A stretch of DNA of 6,188 nucleotides from a virus (lineage: Duplodnaviria > Heunggongvirae > Uroviricota > Caudoviricetes): the IMG/VR virus record IMGVR_UViG_2537561709_000010, one strand, 5' to 3'. The first letter of the stretch is position 1; each line of letters starts with the position of its first letter. The translations under genes and the position numbers were made by a program. Under the pieces are notes generated by a model. That model ran no database searches. It had not been told where the DNA came from and saw nothing but the letters and a program-made list of their open reading frames with translations. Of the stretch, positions 1 to 6,188 are shown piece after piece.

Positions 1-261
1 GACCGCATCGACCGTCAGCGAAGGCGCACCGGCAAAGGTAGCGGCTATAGGCAACACCGTACCGTCATCCGGCATGTGGCACTCAATACGGATTTTCACT
101 GGCATAGCCAGGCCGATATCCAGCATGGAGCCTTTGATGATTCGGGCGACGTTATCACGGTATGCCTGCCCTTCTGCGCTGATGTGCGTGCGCCCGCGAT
201 TATGCCGGTAGTAGCGATTATTGCTCGGAGGCCAGGGTAATGTGATGCTGTAGGTATTCAC
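1..261 (-). CDS. rusA: RusA-like Holliday junction resolvase, N-terminal part (3' end beyond window); diverges from canonical RusA after about residue 66
   Basis: Hand translation of the reverse complement from GTG at 261..259: [87 protein letters not shown], open to the window edge. The first ~66 residues match RusA as I recall it. The GTG start overlaps the ybcO stop (GTGA). Not in the ORF track because it has no stop in the window. Confidence 0.6.
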
Positions 262-548
262 GCCTTAATAACCCCCTCTTTCAGCCAGATAACCTGTGTT
301 CTCGCCATACCTTCCAGCGCGCATTCTTTTGCATATGCAGCATCGACAAAATGTGTGCGGCGGTCGATTTCGTCGTGGCAGGCAGAACATGCAATGGTGG
401 CAATCAAGTCTGGCGGTTTGGTACCGGTGCCGCACAATCCAGTCAGCCGGATATGTGCCAGTACAGACGTTTCAGGGTTGCCATTACATACGCCAGGGAT
501 TCTTACTTGGCATTCCCGACTACGCGCTGCTTTTCTCAAATCAGCCAT
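258..548 (-). CDS. ybcO: YbcO, DUF1364 family putative zinc-dependent nuclease (96 aa)
   Basis: Track ORF 258..587; from the internal Met the protein reads [62 protein letters not shown]..., matching DLP12 YbcO. I place the start at ATG 548..546 because a perfect AGGAGG lies 5 nt upstream on the coding strand (reverse complement of 551-558), whereas the track start at 587 is a TTG. Stop TGA at 260..258. Confidence 0.85.
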
Positions 549-711
549 GATTCCTCCTTGCTGCCAGTCGCAACCATTTTTTATCAACCAGGCTGGCGGT
601 ATATCCGAGCAGTGTTGGTATTTCGGATGGCTTCAGCTCAGGCTTACGCTTACGACGATTTGATACTCTGTAGATGTGTCCGTTCATGACACGAATAAGC
701 GGTGTAGCCAT
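541..711 (-). CDS. ninE: NinE (56 aa)
   Basis: Not in the ORF track (too short). Hand translation from ATG 711..709: [56 protein letters not shown], stop TGA 543..541, matching NinE of lambda/DLP12. The start shares one nucleotide with the ybcN stop (TAATG) and the 3' end overlaps the ybcO start (ATGGCTGA). Confidence 0.8.
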   Translation of the reverse strand: MATPLIRVMNGHIYRVSNRRKRKPELKPSEIPTLLGYTASLVDKKWLRLAARRNHG

Positions 712-1166
712 TACGCCTCCTGCTTGTCACGCAGCAGCTGGAACTCGCAGCTCTGCGGAATAGTCAGGTGGCAGCCAATATTCATCGCCCAGGCTTCAAC
801 CTTACACAGGAAGACATACATCTCTCCGGTATCAAGATCGGAGGTATGGCGTAACGACTGGATAGTGGTGATATCACCGGTTACGACATCAACCAGGTCT
901 TTGGTTTCATAACCGAGATATGTGTGTTTGAGAGCATCTTTTACCCAAGCTGGAGTGGCGAACGTTTTACCCCTGCTGATGAGGTATTCACTGATTTCGC
1001 TGTACCACATGTGGCTGAGTGCATTCTGGGAAAGACTGCGTTTCTCACGCCACGGTTTAAGCACCATGCGAAAGCATTTGCCCTCCTCCAGATAAGGCTG
1101 GATCTGCCGACCGATAGCGGTGAAGTTGCCGCGATGTAATTTGATGCCGTCTTGTGAGAGGTTCAC
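711..1166 (-). CDS. ybcN: YbcN, lambdoid nin-region protein reported as a DNA base-flipping protein (151 aa)
   Basis: Track ORF 711..1166: [32 protein letters not shown]... matches DLP12 YbcN as I recall it. The start codon is GTG (reverse complement of 1164-1166) with GGAGGTGA 3 nt upstream. Stop TAA at 713..711. Confidence 0.88.
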
Positions 1167-1264
1167 GCTTCACCTCCGCAGAGGTCAAACGCTAGATGCA
1201 AAGAATTGCAGGTGCATTTCTGCATCTGTGAAGGGAGAAGAGAGTTTGGATTGTATGTGCGCAT
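1163..1264 (-). CDS. ylcH: Small ORF (33 aa), likely YlcH-like
   Basis: Hand translation from ATG 1264..1262: [33 protein letters not shown], stop TGA 1165..1163 overlapping the ybcN GTG start (GTGA). Position and length agree with the 33-aa ylcH between ybcM and ybcN in DLP12; I cannot recall the reference sequence to confirm. Only a weak SD (GGGGA). Confidence 0.45.
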
Positions 1265-1287
1265 AAACGTCCCCGTTTAGCGCAGAA

Positions 1288-1316
1288 GTCACCGGAGTTG
1301 TTCAGGCTCCGGTGAC
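1288..1316 (-). terminator. Perfect 10-bp inverted repeat (GTCACCGGAG / CTCCGGTGAC, 9-nt loop); candidate terminator or regulatory hairpin downstream of ybcM
   Basis: Seen directly: 1288-1297 gtcaccggag, 1307-1316 ctccggtgac. It lies about 65 nt downstream of the ybcM stop and upstream of ylcH. On the minus-strand transcript the stem is followed by UUCUGCGC, which is not a clean U-tract, so terminator function is uncertain. Confidence 0.3.
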
Positions 1317-1380
1317 ATAATTATGCCGTGTTGATTTCCCAAAATCAAAATCGATAGAATTGCTCCTTCTTAAAACACTT

Positions 1381-2178
1381 TTACTCTCTGGAAGCTTTTC
1401 TTATCTCTCTTGGTGTTATATTAAAACGATTATGAAATCTTTCAGTAAAACGCGAAGGACACTTATAACCATTTTCTCTGGCAATCTCGCTTATAGGTTT
1501 TACCGTCGTTTGTATAGCAGACAACGCATTATTTAACCTCACATCGTCCAGTATACTTTGGAAACTTACCCCCTCGCTTGCTAGACGGCGATGTAATGTA
1601 GAAACAGAAATGTAGAGATATCGAGCAACCTTGTTTGCTGTCCATTTTGTGCCGGGTTCGGATAGCAGCAGGTTATAACAACGACTTATCAATGATTGTT
1701 TACTATATGATAAAAGTAAATGATTAACATGATTCACTCCTAACGAAAGTAGAACGCCCATTGCTAAGTGCTCCTGAATTTTAGTTGAGAAGCCTCGGGA
1801 AACAGATGTTTTTAGTTGCTCCCAACAATATATTAACTCAGGATTCTGAGGTAAAAAGAAACTTGTTTTGTTACGTATTTGATCAGTTACCGTATAAAGC
1901 TTTTGGAAACTCTCAATTAAATCAATGGGTAAGTAAAGCATTTCTGCAAGATAAAGCCCTGCTTCAGGATAATTCTCAATATAAAATTCATAACCACAAG
2001 GAAATAATATTATTTGATTATTATCAACAGTTAAAGTATGCGTCTCCCAATTGATAACTTTCTTTCCCTGACGGATACGACACAAAGCTGGCATAAGAGG
2101 CTTAACCCTATGAATCTCATGATGTTTATGCATCCGTATTTCTTCGATCTTTAAGTTAGTCTTACCTCTTGCCAGCAT
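1381..2178 (-). CDS. ybcM: AraC/XylS-family transcriptional regulator YbcM (265 aa)
   Basis: Track ORF 1381..2178. C-terminal helix-turn-helix region typical of AraC family (…[42 protein letters not shown]…[33 protein letters not shown]). ATG at 2178..2176, only 9 nt after the ybcL stop (TAG at 2190..2188). Confidence 0.88.
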
Positions 2179-2187
2179 ACTCTCACC

Positions 2188-2739
2188 CTACTTTATCTCA
2201 TAAACTGGTGTTATCTCAGCGGTTGCGATTTTATTAGCATTAAGCATATAACCAACTAACGCTCCGCTGGAGTTAGAATCTACAGGAATCTTTTCAGTTT
2301 TTAGAGCCCATACTTTAAACTGGTAATGATGTGGTTTATCTCCTTTAGGAGGACATGCGCCACCAAACCCAGCATAGCCAAAATCATTTCGGCCTTGAAC
2401 AGCACCAGTCGGCAGTTTTGTTCCATCACGTCTCCCTGCATCAACGGGCAAATATGTTACTGTTGCTGGAATATTAACAACAGTCCAATGCCACCAACCA
2501 CTGCCTGTAGGTGCATCTGGATCATATACAGTTACGGCAAAGCTTTTGGTACCTTCAGGAACACCAGACCAGGTTAATGAGGGCGATGTATTACCACCTT
2601 CACACCCAAATCCAGAAAAGACATGAGACGTTGTAAGTTGCTCTCCTGTTTTTATTTCATTACTAGCGACCTGAAATGCTGCAGCCTGCGCAGAAAATGT
2701 TATGAATGCCAATACAGTTGAAACGATAAGTGTTTTCAT
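2188..2739 (-). CDS. ybcL: YbcL, PEBP/RKIP (UPF0098) family protein with N-terminal signal peptide (183 aa)
   Basis: Track ORF 2188..2739. N-terminus MKTLIVSTVLAFITFSAQAAAFQ is a typical Sec signal peptide with an AQA-A cleavage motif. The rest matches DLP12 YbcL as I recall it. SD AGAGG lies 5 nt upstream of ATG 2739..2737. Confidence 0.88.
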   Translation of the reverse strand: MKTLIVSTVLAFITFSAQAAAFQVASNEIKTGEQLTTSHVFSGFGCEGGNTSPSLTWSGVPEGTKSFAVTVYDPDAPTGSGWWHWTVVNIPATVTYLPVDAGRRDGTKLPTGAVQGRNDFGYAGFGGACPPKGDKPHHYQFKVWALKTEKIPVDSNSSGALVGYMLNANKIATAEITPVYEIK

Positions 2740-2955
2740 AAAAACCTCTTTGTTATGACCTATCGTTATTTTATTTGATATTCCTTTATCTCATTATGCA
2801 TAAAGGCGCAATGTTCATGCAAAAGCAATCACAATTGTACCCCCAACCCAATTATTTGCCACAATATACACAAAGCACATTGATACTATCTAAAAACTCT
2901 GCTTTATTATTAGTAATACCTACGAAAGTCGGTGTTATTTTTTAACCTACCATTC

Positions 2956-3005
2956 AAAATACGTGACATACACCATTTTGCTCATAATAATTTGTCACGT
3001 ATTTT
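2956..3005. repeat. 50-bp dyad element: perfect 13-bp inverted arms (AAAATACGTGACA / TGTCACGTATTTT) around a 24-bp spacer
   Basis: Seen directly: 2956-2968 aaaatacgtgaca and 2993-3005 tgtcacgtatttt are exact reverse complements. Each arm carries an A4/T4 tract on its outer side, the arrangement of a bidirectional intrinsic terminator, but the spacer is long for a loop. About 200 bp downstream of the ybcK stop and 215 bp upstream of the ybcL start. Confidence 0.4.
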
Positions 3006-3203
3006 CAGTATTTGAATCTGCGACCAAGAGTTCTCACCTAACAAATGATTAAGATTGTATAGCTCATTTACTACCCCAATACAGCCGTACAAAACTCGCT
3101 TGTGGGAGCAAACAAAGTAATTACCCATTAAGTTTCGTTAAAGATAATTAATTCTGTCTTGCACTTTATCATCATAGCATAACTTAAAATCCGAGATCAT
3201 TAT

Positions 3204-4731
3204 TTAGAAATAAATCTCACCATCAACCATATATTTGAGAGCACTTATCGCCTGCTGGGCAGATATTACTTTCATTAAAGGATAGTGTTTAAAAACAATG
3301 CCATTCATAAAATAGATATCACAGGTTTTATTATCCGTATTAATTATGATTTTTTCGAATGTTTTATAGGCAAGTGTACGGCATAACTCTCGTCCATTTT
3401 TACTGGTTAAGTCAATAGCATAAAAATCACTGAATGAATTTACACCTTTACTCTTCAAAGTTTTCAATGATACCGAAGCCCTTCGTAATTCCTTATCTAA
3501 TAGTCTTATTTTCTCTGCTATAGCGGTAACTTCAGGCGCGACAGACAATGCAACGATTAAATTATTAATTTTCATCTGAAGCTCAATAATTTTTAACTCT
3601 AAAGTTTCATTAGCATCTTTCTTGTTTTCAACTGGTTGAATTTTGCTACAATTAAAAAGCAATTCATTAATGATATTATAATCAACCAAATCTCTCTTTA
3701 TTGATGGCCTGTCACATCGATGTAATCTTCTCATCGGACAAACATAATAGCCATGCAAACTTCCAGATACCGCATGAACAATCATGGTATTACCACAAGC
3801 CTCACACTTCATAACTGTTCGAAGTAGATTTATTAGCATAGGATTCTTGCTACTATTGCTAATACCAAAAGGTGCCAACCGAATTTCCTGTACAGCGTAA
3901 AACAAATCATCTGATATGACTCTGGGATAATAGCCAGCGATTTCACTTATCCCTTTCCCTCTTGCACGATATGAAGGTACGCATATACCTATCAGAGCTT
4001 TATTCGCTAATAATTTTTCAATTACAGAAGGCCCCCATGCACTTTTCTTTTCCTGAGAAATTCTTTACAGCATGATCATTTAAATACTTGGCTATTGCAT
4101 TCAATGAGCGCCTTTCCATCCTGAGTTTAAAAATTAGCTCAATAGTTTTCACCCTGTCGGGGTCTGGAACAAAAGCCGTTCTTTTGTCATCTAAGGAGAG
4201 CCATCTCGGACAAGACGCCGTCATAATCGTACCTGATTCCAGTGCATCCTGCCGTTTTTTCTTCCATGATAATTTAACCCGACTTGACTTTATCTCGCTT
4301 TCTTCATTTGCCCTTTGTGCTATAAGTATGGCTTTTATTAATGAATATGGCTCATTCAAAGAGTCAATATTATAGACTGTATTGTCGCAAAGAGTTATAA
4401 CATCAATACCGTGATTCAAAATCAATTTCAGACGTTCAATCGCTTCACCGACTTTTTCTCTTGAAAGTCTGTCCAGACTTTCAACTAACAATGTAGTTCC
4501 TGGCAATATATAACCATGCTCTATAGCATCTAAAAATTCCGAAAAAGCTCCTGATTGTGCATGCTTTCCTTTGAATGCACTTAATCCTAAATCTTCATAT
4601 GTTATGGTATCAAGATAATAATCACTATTTACCTTTAACCATTCAGCAATAAGTCTTCTCTGTCGGTTTAATGAGTCGCCAGACATCTGACCTGGTGATG
4701 AAAATCGCATATATGCTATGGCTTTTTTCAT
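3204..4731 (-). pseudogene. ybcK: Large serine recombinase (ybcK-like), interrupted by a +1 frameshift in this sequence
   Basis: Two same-strand ORFs: 4018..4731 carries the resolvase catalytic domain (YMRFSSPGQ with the presumed catalytic Ser; ESLDRLSR motif), and 3204..3905 carries a zinc-ribbon (CEACGNTM…HGYYVCPMRRLHRC) and coiled-coil region. The downstream frame stays open upstream to 4067, so both frames are open across 4018-4067. Total span is 1528 nt (3x509+1), consistent with a 508-aa protein carrying one extra nucleotide. Confidence 0.7.
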
Positions 4732-4975
4732 GGTGACACCTGCTAACTTATGCTTTTATAAACCTTAGTGGTGAGATATAATTTTTGTTTAATTTTTATT
4801 TAAAAAGACAATTACGATCACACTATCTTGAATATACAACAATAATCGTATTGCAATTTGCTTACGCAATAATCTTGAAGGCACAAAAGAATACACAAAA
4901 ACTAAAAACATTAACAAAAGCGGCCCATGTAAAGATATGAACCGCCATATTGCAGTCTTTTAAAAGAAATTATTT

Positions 4976-5308
4976 TTAATGTGGTGTGCTTCGTGACAAT
5001 AAATTAATAACCAACACACCGGCACAAATCAACATCATGCCTATAACGGCTGGCAGGTCCAGCCGTTGGCCGAAAAACCCCCATGATAGTAAGCTAATCA
5101 GGACAATACCGACTCCTGACCAGATAGCATAAGCAATCCCTGTAGGAATATAAGCCAGCGTCTGAGCTAATAACCAGAATGATGCACAATAACAAATAAT
5201 TGTACCAACAGATGGCCATAACCGTGTAAAACCTTCTGAAAACTTCATTAAGGTTGTACCAATGACCTCTGCAAGTATTGCACCACCAAGATAAATATAA
5301 GGGTTCAT
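4976..5308 (-). CDS. emrE: EmrE, small multidrug resistance (SMR) family efflux transporter (110 aa)
   Basis: Track ORF 4976..5362; from the internal ATG 5308..5306 the protein reads MNPYIYLGGAILAEVIGTTLMKFSEGFTRLWPSVGTIICYCASFWLLAQTLAYIPTGIAYAIWSGVGIVLISLLSWGFFGQRLDLPAVIGMMLICAGVLVINLLSRSTPH, matching EmrE including the conserved membrane-embedded Glu (KFSEGF). The 18 extra N-terminal codons in the track are not part of the known protein. Confidence 0.9.
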   Translation of the reverse strand: MNPYIYLGGAILAEVIGTTLMKFSEGFTRLWPSVGTIICYCASFWLLAQTLAYIPTGIAYAIWSGVGIVLISLLSWGFFGQRLDLPAVIGMMLICAGVLVINLLSRSTPH

Positions 5309-5323
5309 AACATATTCTTTCCT

Positions 5324-5358
5324 GTTCAAACTGGAGAGAATTGTACTACAGTTTGAAC
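5324..5358 (-). promoter_or_regulatory. Perfect 10-bp inverted repeat (GTTCAAACTG / CAGTTTGAAC, 15-nt loop) in the ren–emrE spacer, just upstream of the emrE ribosome-binding site
   Basis: Seen directly: 5324-5333 gttcaaactg, 5349-5358 cagtttgaac. On the minus-strand transcript the hairpin is followed directly by AGGAAAG and, about 10 nt on, the emrE ATG (5308). No U-tract follows, so it is not a canonical intrinsic terminator. Confidence 0.3.
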
Positions 5359-5375
5359 TCAACTCACCTGTTTCA

Positions 5376-5678
5376 TCATTGTGTACCCATTGATGTTCTT
5401 TTATATACCCTCAATACCCGTTTCATCGCGGCACTCTGGCGACACTCCTTAAAAATCAGATTCGTGCTCACCTTTCCTTCCCGTTCTTCTCTGGTAGCGA
5501 ACCGGTAATACACCGTTCGCCAGACCTTACCATCAACGACCAGGATTCCTGCCCGCGCCATTTTAGCCGCAGCCTGATTTATGCTGGTTACGGTTGCGCC
5601 TGTTACCGCGGCAACGTCCTGTGCACAGAAGCTCTTATGCGTCCCCAGGTAATGAATAATTGCCTCTTTGCCCGTCAT
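5376..5678 (-). CDS. ren: Ren protein, lambda ren homolog (100 aa)
   Basis: Track ORF 5376..5678: MTGKEAIIHYLGTHKSFCAQDVAAVTGATVTSINQAAAKMARAGILVVDGKVWRTVYYRFATREEREGKVSTNLIFKECRQSAAMKRVL… is near-identical to lambda Ren over about 90 residues, with a different C-terminal tail. ATG at 5678..5676 overlaps the P stop (ATGA). Confidence 0.85.
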   Translation of the reverse strand: MTGKEAIIHYLGTHKSFCAQDVAAVTGATVTSINQAAAKMARAGILVVDGKVWRTVYYRFATREEREGKVSTNLIFKECRQSAAMKRVLRVYKRTSMGTQ

Positions 5679-6188
5679 ACACTTGCTCCTTTCAGTCCGA
5701 ACTTAGCTTTAATTTCTGCGATCTTCGCCAGAGCCTGTGCACGATTTAGAGGTCTACCGCCCATAACAGGAAGTTGTTTTACTGGTTCAGGTATCGTCTC
5801 ACCACGGTTAATTCGCGCTGTCATACAGGTCAGTTCATCGGCAGCCTTGCGCCGTAATTCCGCGTCAGTCAGCGCATTGGCCCGCATGTTCTGGTACAAG
5901 TTGGTAACCAACCAGTAATGCGCGTTCGATTTCCACGGATAAGACTCTGCATCCGGATACAGGCCACGCTTCCGGCAATACTCGTAAACCATATCAACCA
6001 GCTCGCTGACGTTTGGCAGTCCGGCGATAACGGATGCTTCTTCCCGGCACCATGCAACAAACTGCCCGGGTGATGGCAGGAATGGTCGATTCTGCCGACG
6101 GGCTACGCGCATTCCTGCGTTAACCTGTTCCATTGTGGTGATCCCGTTTTCCCGGAAAGCCAGAACCCACTGGCGGCGGATTTCGTTC
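5675..6188 (-). CDS. P: Replication protein P, lambda P homolog, C-terminal part (5' end beyond window)
   Basis: Track ORF 5675..6133 (MEQVNAGMRVARRQNRPFLPSPGQFVAWCREEAS…KAKFGLKGASV) matches the C-terminal ~150 aa of lambda P. The frame stays open upstream to the window edge; hand translation of 6134-6187 gives NEIRRQWVLAFRENGITT, which also matches lambda P. Stop TGA at 5677..5675. Confidence 0.85.
   Translation of the reverse strand, partial: NEIRRQWVLAFRENGITTMEQVNAGMRVARRQNRPFLPSPGQFVAWCREEASVIAGLPNVSELVDMVYEYCRKRGLYPDAESYPWKSNAHYWLVTNLYQNMRANALTDAELRRKAADELTCMTARINRGETIPEPVKQLPVMGGRPLNRAQALAKIAEIKAKFGLKGASV

Follow-up and report, generated by a model that had tools for sequence, protein, structure and literature searches.

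A low-GC accessory block in the ren-nin slot of a lambdoid phage backbone

The window, by which we mean the whole 6,188-nt stretch of viral DNA analyzed here, carries all of its recognizable genes on the - strand, from the gene for replication protein P to the start of rusA (Table 1). RefSeq annotation of the homologous regions in E. coli K-12 (cryptic prophage DLP12) and O157:H7 gives the same gene assignments. Between ren and the nin genes of the lambdoid backbone lies an accessory block whose GC content is 31-45%, against 50-55% in the backbone flanks (GC profile). Within this block, ybcK is split because a T-run near 4046/4047 is one base longer than in K-12 and O157:H7, and its two halves hold the Resolvase/Recombinase domains and the Zn_ribbon_recom domain, respectively (Pfam). 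The next two genes, ybcL and ybcM, are the subject of this analysis.

Table 1. Genes and sequence elements of the window, in the direction of transcription
Feature	Position	Strand	Basis or remark
Replication protein P	5675-6133	-	ORF, Pfam
ren	5376-5678	-	ORF, Pfam
Low-GC accessory block (emrE, ylcJ remnant, ybcK, ybcL, ybcM)	~1320-5370	-	GC profile, gene content
emrE, SMR efflux pump, 110 aa	4976-5308	-	Pfam Multi_Drug_Res, E 2e-35
Terminator-like hairpin with T-run just after the emrE stop	4946-4919	-	Terminator scan
Diverged ylcJ region (remnant)	between emrE and ybcK	-	
ybcK, large serine recombinase, frameshifted into two ORFs	3204-4731 (4018-4731 + 3204-3905)	-	Pfam
Counterpart of the K-12 YbcM ChIP-exo peak	2807-2840	-	68-101 nt upstream of the ybcL ATG
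Distal TTWTGCATNA box, TTTTGCATGA	2815-2824	-	Candidate YbcM element
Proximal TTWTGCATNA box, palindrome, TTATGCATAA	2794-2803	-	Candidate YbcM element
ybcL, 183 aa	2188-2739	-	ORF, Pfam, NCBIfam
Signal-peptide coding part of ybcL, residues 1-21, MKTLIVSTVLAFITFSAQAAA	2677-2739	-	Direct reading of the sequence: K2, hydrophobic core, AQA/AAA motifs
ybcL codon 25, GCT (Ala)	2665-2667	-	T25A; alignment and codon table
ybcL codon 99, GTT (Val)	2443-2445	-	Alignment with MG1655 and UTI89; codon table
ybcL stop	2188-2190	-	
ybcL-ybcM spacer of 9 nt, GGTGAGAGT	2179-2187	-	GGTGA, Shine-Dalgarno-like, directly after the ybcL stop
ybcM ATG	2176-2178	-	
ybcM, 265 aa	1381-2178	-	ORF, Pfam
Perfect 10-bp stem-loop, GTCACCGGAG N9 CTCCGGTGAC	1288-1316	-	65 nt downstream of ybcM, where the GC content changes from cargo to backbone
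ybcN, ninB-like	711-1166	-	ORF, Pfam
ninE	541-711	-	ORF, Pfam
ybcO	258-548	-	ORF, Pfam
rusA, start of gene	after ybcO in the direction of transcription	-	ORF, Pfam

Among 5426 complete E. coli genomes, the best full-length matches of the window are O157:H7 prophages (98.8% identical), and positions 774-3696, which include both ybcL and ybcM, are identical to O157:H7 strain TR01. The whole window is also found at 98.4-98.6% identity in three complete lambdoid phages, PhiR70_1, PhiR68_2 and PhiR34_1, in all of which ybcK, ybcL and ybcM are intact; the recorded hosts of these phages are E. coli C, ECOR13 and K-12 MG1655. In the sister phages 4A7, Perceval, 1W and 3W, emrE-ybcK is retained and an esterase gene takes the place of ybcLM, while further sister phages carry other cargo in the ren-nin slot, with PD-lambda-1 and an acyltransferase annotated under the matches. 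With its deviant GC content, its place between backbone modules, its presence in complete phages and its variability among relatives, ybcLM has the properties of lambdoid accessory cargo (a moron). None of the PADLOC models matched YbcL, YbcM, YbcK or EmrE at E <= 0.01, and we rejected a reading of the block as an anti-phage defense system on this ground. Rfam returned no match anywhere in the window.

YbcL is a PEBP-family protein with a signal peptide

The YbcL protein matches the Pfam PBP/PEBP family PF01161 with an E value of 3.2e-42 (144.5 bits, cut-off 24) over positions 6-135 of the 135 in the profile, and it also exceeds the cut-offs of TIGR00481 (189.5 bits, cut-off 57.75) and of the NCBIfam YbcL equivalog NF007330 (399.2 bits, cut-off 277), the latter over residues 1-183 of 183. 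The pocket motifs of the family are present (D73-P74-D75-A76-P77, H84 and P130-P131-K-G...H137-H138-Y139); they are invariant in the E. coli, E. albertii and Plesiomonas homologues and align with those of YbhB. At the nucleotide level, ybcL is 100% identical to the gene of O157:H7 TR01 and 99.8% identical to that of K-12. The protein differs by one residue from the solved K-12 YbcL structure (1FUX), besides two N-terminal residues of the crystallized chain.

Read by eye, the N-terminus (MK-TLIVSTVLAFITF-SAQAAA) has the three regions of a Sec export signal, namely a basic n-region, a 12-residue hydrophobic core and A-x-A cleavage motifs. The native sequence of the 1FUX chain begins at F22, and the signal peptide would thus be cleaved after A21. 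The reported location of YbcL is the periplasm (PMC4810123).

The window carries a K-12-type ybcL allele

We compared ybcL of the window with the alleles of UTI89 (the strain used in the published studies), Nissle 1917, MG1655 and O157:H7. UTI89 and MG1655 YbcL differ at six aligned positions (T3K, T8S, V60A, V88A, V99T and E149D), and the window agrees with K-12 at every one of them. Its only amino-acid change from K-12 is T25A, which it has in common with O157:H7. The sole Val/Thr difference between K-12 and UTI89 falls at precursor position 99, which is mature position 78 after removal of 21 residues. UTI89 and Nissle have ACT (Thr) at this codon, and the window, with GTT, does not have the Thr that marks a UPEC-type allele. 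The abstract of the 2012 report by Lau et al. reportedly names "V78T", and we take this determinant of activity to be precursor position 99 of the window YbcL. Reading residue 78 in precursor numbering was rejected, as T78 is invariant in all alleles and the only Val/Thr difference is at precursor 99. In the literature searched, no text paired YbcL with V78T or T78V.

PMC4810123, citing Lau et al. 2012/2014, states that YbcL of uropathogenic E. coli suppresses neutrophil migration and that the K-12 or commensal form is non-suppressive owing to a change in one amino acid. The UPEC literature mentioned in the initial annotation is therefore real. The same annotation had left it undecided which allele the window carries and had named a match to the inactive K-12 form as an outcome that would count against it; the alignment gave the K-12 form, which excludes the more exciting case of a virulence-type allele on a phage. 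The window YbcL is a K-12-type allele, and with Val99 it is predicted to lack the activity that suppresses neutrophil migration. As the K-12 state is found at 6/6 of the UTI89/K-12 differences, this conclusion on the allele holds whichever of these residues is the determinant.

ybcL and ybcM are arranged as an operon

YbcM belongs to the AraC/XylS family by virtue of its C-terminal double helix-turn-helix domain, which matches Pfam HTH_18 at residues 185-261 (61.5 bits, cut-off 33.6) and HTH_AraC (29.1 bits, cut-off 26.6); its N-terminal domain is weakly ExsA_N-like. The protein is 100% identical to that of K-12 and 91% identical to that of UTI89.

The 9-nt spacing between ybcL and ybcM is also annotated in K-12, O157:H7, UTI89, Nissle, HS and others, and a consensus scan returned no promoter-like or terminator-like site within the gap. 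With both genes on one strand, nothing resembling a promoter or terminator between them and a pairing that is kept out to Plesiomonas, the arrangement is what would be expected of a bicistronic operon, and the authors of the K-12 ChIP-exo study call ybcLM an operon as well (PMC8464067). The ribosome-binding site of ybcM lies in the spacer beside the ybcL stop, and so its translation is probably coupled to that of ybcL. The initial annotation had read the locus as phage cargo in which a PEBP-family protein with a clear signal peptide is followed 9 nt later by an AraC-family gene, probably in one operon. Each part of this description stands: the family assignment on the Pfam and NCBIfam matches, the signal peptide on its three regions and on the F22 start of 1FUX, the operon on the exact gap with no site in it and on the published ybcLM operon, and the cargo on the GC drop and on the presence of the cassette in complete plaque-forming lambdoid phages.

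Downstream of ybcM, the consensus scan reported no terminator. The perfect stem-loop at the edge of the block was missed by the scan because no T-run follows it; it is possibly a weak terminator of the operon, and with a hairpin of this kind, read-through into the nin genes may occur.

YbcM and the ybcL promoter region

ChIP-exo in K-12 under paraquat mapped 12 YbcM sites (PMC8464067). The peak upstream of ybcL, at 570015-570048, is the second strongest (S/N 357) and is bound by RNAP (PMC8464067 supplement), and the authors read it as autoregulation of the ybcLM operon; other sites lie at ubiT, ucpA, lrhA and csrB (PMC8464067). The coordinates of that study belong to an older version of the K-12 genome, with the ybcL ATG at 570116. 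Taking them as NC_000913.3 was rejected, as the peaks would then fall inside ybcK, yhbO (for the ubiT site) and cysP (for the ucpA site).

The stretch of the window that corresponds to the ybcL peak is identical in the window, K-12 and O157:H7. Because both the YbcM protein and this site are identical to those of K-12, the published binding of YbcM to the ybcL promoter should hold for the window too. The initial annotation had left it undecided whether YbcM controls ybcL or emrE, and for ybcL the K-12 data already supply an answer. TTWTGCATNA is matched exactly at just two places in the window, 21 nt apart, one in the peak counterpart and the other just downstream of it. The proximal one overlaps a -10-like CATAAT (2793-2798). 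Related sequences occur near other mapped K-12 YbcM peaks, CTTTATGCAT at a distance of about 26 nt from the ucpA peak and AAATGCACAAT at about 16 nt from the ubiT peak; UTI89 and Nissle retain the core of the boxes. This suggests that the boxes are YbcM recognition elements and that CATAAT is part of the promoter, in what we infer to be an activator-type arrangement. The promoter scan did no better than chance (16 promoter-like sites, 15.5 expected), and its best match near ybcL, with a -35 at 2862-2857 and a -10 at 2839-2834, differs from the promoter proposed here.

Several phenotypes of ybcM have been published. A ybcM deletion strain is 8-fold more sensitive to H2O2 (PMC8464067), a ybcM::Tn5 mutant shows hyperlethality with nalidixic acid, which the cloned gene complements (PMC2824699), and YbcM lowers motility-gene expression and raises biofilm-gene expression (meeting report PMC9966839).

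ybcLM in prophages and in a chromosomal remnant

Of the 5426 complete E. coli genomes, only 669 have prophage-type ybcL (>=99% identity), and a further 2564 carry an allele that is 93-95% identical and sits in another chromosomal place. There, the order is fliE, emrE, ybcL and ybcM, then a porin gene or IS200/TnpB elements, then yedK. In the copies examined on the fliE side, neither ybcK nor phage backbone genes were found. The UTI89 version is colinear with PhiR70_1 except for two missing blocks, one comprising ylcJ-ybcK and 310 nt downstream, the other running from ybcN through most of Q. The UTI89 locus looks like a remnant of a PhiR70_1-like phage in which nothing but the cargo genes would have been kept.

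Three states of codon 99 occur in this census. Prophage-type copies have GTT (Val; 667 genomes), and of the 670 genomes matched by a 51-mer of this type that carries GTT at codon 99, 667 match it exactly. Chromosomal copies have either GCT (Ala; 2179 genomes, e.g., the commensal HS) or ACT (Thr; 409 genomes, e.g., UTI89 and Nissle). E. albertii and Plesiomonas have Val as well and, since it is also the state of the phage-borne copies, Val99 is probably the ancestral state. Two allele backgrounds, 12-14 other nucleotides apart, both show the Ala/Thr change, and ybcL of FORC_041 and 510016 differs at the codon-99 nucleotide only, which points to recurrent change or to very short recombination tracts. 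A contig scan with YbcM as query yielded only six loci; two "Shigella flexneri" loci were left out, as they gave matches in several reading frames, suggesting degraded copies or low-quality assemblies. In Plesiomonas, the ybcL-ybcM pair adjoins housekeeping genes.

It is conceivable, if rather doubtful, that codon 99 (mature 78) is a recurrent target of selection and that ybcLM is a domesticated phage module tuning host interaction and motility, with phages circulating the ancestral form. The probable ancestry of Val99, the Ala or Thr in the remnant beside the flagellar gene fliE, the Ala/Thr change on two backgrounds and the reported repression of motility genes by YbcM were counted toward this idea.

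Alternative readings of the locus

We weighed three other accounts of the pair. That ybcL and ybcM are adjacent yet independently transcribed, with ybcM read from a promoter of its own inside ybcL, gains something from the abundance of promoter-like hexamers in AT-rich DNA such as this (16 in 4.3 kb). Yet the scan reported no promoter-like site on the - strand inside ybcL, the spacing is 9 nt in every E. coli allele examined, and the order of ybcL then ybcM is kept in E. albertii and in Plesiomonas, where the spacer is 14 nt. The locus has a single strong YbcM/RNAP site, found upstream of ybcL, and the authors speak of an operon ybcLM; we regard separate transcription as very unlikely. Much the same judgment, a shade more severe, applies to emrE as the main local target of YbcM, or to a single regulon of emrE, ybcL and ybcM that would make the module a drug or stress efflux unit. 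The three genes do travel together in prophages, in E. albertii and, for >2500 genomes, in the chromosomal remnant, and ybcM mutants are stress-sensitive. Against this, ChIP-exo placed none of its 12 sites at emrE (in K-12 under paraquat only, so that control under other conditions may occur; PMC8464067), and upstream of emrE the window lacks any exact TTWTGCATNA match. The emrE stop is followed by a terminator-like hairpin with a T-run, 2 kb of ybcK DNA separates emrE from ybcL in the window, and Plesiomonas has ybcL-ybcM with no emrE detectable in the flanking 4 kb. Most likely, emrE is a separate transcription unit.

The remaining account concerns the protein: the window allele might suppress neutrophil migration like the UPEC protein despite Val99, for example if T25A, close to the start of the mature protein, compensated for it. 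This substitution does distinguish the window allele from K-12 and is fixed in O157:H7-type prophages, and the searched literature holds no report on its effect. However, UTI89 has T25, like K-12, so A25 does not belong to the active allele. The loss of activity in K-12 and commensal strains is blamed on one residue in PMC4810123, and the window is K-12-like wherever UTI89 and K-12 differ. We consider an active allele here extremely improbable.

Discussion

Altogether, we read the window as a segment of a lambdoid (DLP12-like) prophage whose ren-nin slot holds the two-gene operon ybcL-ybcM, and we put the probability of this whole explanation, including autoregulation and the K-12-type allele, at roughly 85%. 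A weak sigma-70 promoter some 50-100 nt upstream of ybcL would be bound by YbcM, making the operon autoregulated, and a single transcript would encode both proteins. YbcL would reach the periplasm by the Sec pathway after loss of a signal peptide of about 21 residues, while translation of YbcM would probably be coupled to that of ybcL through the ribosome-binding site in the spacer. YbcM would be a phage-supplied AraC-type factor that also acts on the host promoters of ucpA, ubiT, lrhA and csrB; it is linked to survival of peroxide and quinolones and to a shift from motility to biofilm. YbcL itself, being of the K-12 type with Val99 and T25A, would lack the suppression of neutrophil migration seen with the UTI89 type.

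The identity of the genes, the structure, the periplasmic location, the activity of the UPEC form, its dependence on a single residue and the autoregulation by YbcM are all known from the literature. The ybcL-ybcM feature is real and ordinary, a member of known families (PEBP/YbcL equivalog, AraC, lambdoid cargo), and the value of the analysis lies mainly in the correct annotation of ybcLM. The residue reported to determine function has three states in E. coli, with Ala the commonest. As the window carries no UPEC-type immune-modulating allele on a phage, nothing here hints that phages spread the trait.

Comparison with known systems

Like lambdoid phage morons in the ren-nin slot, the block has foreign GC content, backbone flanks, a promoter region of its own and swaps in sister phages; unlike them, it has no clear intrinsic terminator that we found 3' of ybcM. 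A close known system is the K-12 locus in DLP12. YbcL there (1FUX; NF007330) has the same length, signal peptide and PEBP fold family, is identical at 182/183 residues including Val99, and has the same neighbors (emrE, ybcK, ybcM, ybcN, ninE, ybcO and rusA). The window differs by T25A, at mature residue 4, and by the frameshift in the adjoining ybcK. K-12 YbcM, also of the AraC family (PMC8464067), is identical in protein and in the binding region upstream of ybcL, with two synonymous nucleotide changes only in ybcM. YbhB, the cytoplasmic E. coli PEBP paralogue (1FJJ/1VI3), has the fold family and the motifs DPDAPTGSGWWHW and PPKG..H.Y in common with YbcL, whereas it has no signal peptide and is not phage-borne; the YbhB equivalog model scores 201 bits here, under its cut-off of 226.

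YbcL(UTI) of UTI89 is an orthologue that is 96% identical and has the same partner, ybcM, again 9 nt away, and about 150 nt of the promoter-proximal region are conserved between the loci. It differs from the window allele at seven residues, including Thr for Val at precursor 99, and its gene lies not in a prophage but in the chromosomal remnant between fliE and the porin gene near yedK. ybcLM is true cargo of viable lambdoid phages, while the copy of the uropathogen sits in what appears to be a stripped-down phage remnant.

Variation at ybcL codon 99

We surveyed the ybcL codon reported to determine activity across 5426 complete E. coli genomes and found three residue states: Ala in 2179 genomes, Val, as carried by the window, in 667 and Thr in 409. 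Val also occupies this position in the ybcL genes of E. albertii and Plesiomonas. The switch between Ala and Thr was seen on two separate allele backgrounds, which suggests that the codon has changed recurrently. The ybcL genes of FORC_041 and 510016 differ solely at nt 295.

Features of the window and of the compared loci (L-numbers denote loci outside the window)
Feature	Position	Remarks
ybcL codon 99	2443-2445	Reported activity-determining residue; same codon in L005 (UTI89) and L011-L015 (further E. coli loci)
Perfect 13-nt inverted repeat	2956-3005	AAAATACGTGACA N24 TGTCACGTATTTT; ybcK-ybcL spacer
ybcK, large serine recombinase	3204-4731	Split into two ORFs; frameshift near 4046/4047
emrE-ybcK spacer (ylcJ region)	4748-4966	Against K-12 and O157:H7: ~25 mismatches, one deletion of 10 nt
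13-nt inverted repeat, 92% complementary	5324-5358	GTTCAAACTGGAG N9 CTACAGTTTGAAC; between ren stop and emrE start
emrE-ybcL-ybcM beside fliE	L005:41594-43453; L001:7500-9359; L011-L015	UTI89; Nissle; further E. coli loci
ybcL-like then ybcM-like gene	L022:3405-4801	Plesiomonas MAG
Esterase gene region	L018:2548-3591	Phage 4A7; counterpart of window 1381-2739

ybcK, its flanking spacers and the rusA end

Sequence comparison showed that the ybcK reading frame is broken in the window by a single additional base within a T-run, while K-12, O157:H7 and phage PhiR70_1 carry an unbroken 508-aa gene. The split may reflect either a true pseudogene or a homopolymer sequencing error. The part of the ybcK-ybcL spacer that holds the perfect inverted repeat was found in the three aligned sequences containing ybcK and is missing from UTI89 and Nissle; this repeat could be a ybcK terminator, or else a protein-binding or recombination site. 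On the other side of ybcK, the emrE-ybcK spacer is the most diverged stretch of the window in comparison with K-12 and O157:H7, and the window's ylcJ is probably not intact. The imperfect repeat preceding emrE could act as a terminator for ren or as an emrE operator. At the opposite end of the window, positions 1-66, inside rusA, are left uncovered by megablast: every hit in the best-matching E. coli prophages and phages starts at position 67, which suggests a mosaic breakpoint.

ybcL-ybcM inside and outside phage genomes

The Plesiomonas pair comprises a ybcL-like gene (73% identity) that has a signal peptide and, 14 nt after it, a ybcM-like gene (51% identity), so that the regulator is diverging faster than the PEBP protein. 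ORF translations suggest that its neighbors are the housekeeping genes ychF, pth, prs and ispE, a setting which argues that the pairing is older than, or independent of, the phage context.

Sister lambdoid phages retain emrE-ybcK as in the window, but carry an esterase gene in the opposite orientation at the position of ybcL-ybcM. Annotations beneath matches to other related phages include PD-lambda-1, an acyltransferase and a lipoprotein. Next to the serine recombinase gene lies a variable cargo site.

In approximately 2560 of the 5426 E. coli genomes, emrE-ybcL-ybcM adjoins fliE and is accompanied by neither ybcK nor phage backbone genes. The UTI89 region beside fliE is colinear with PhiR70_1 except that two blocks are missing, which makes it look like a phage remnant that has retained only its cargo genes (emrE, ybcLM and a porin).
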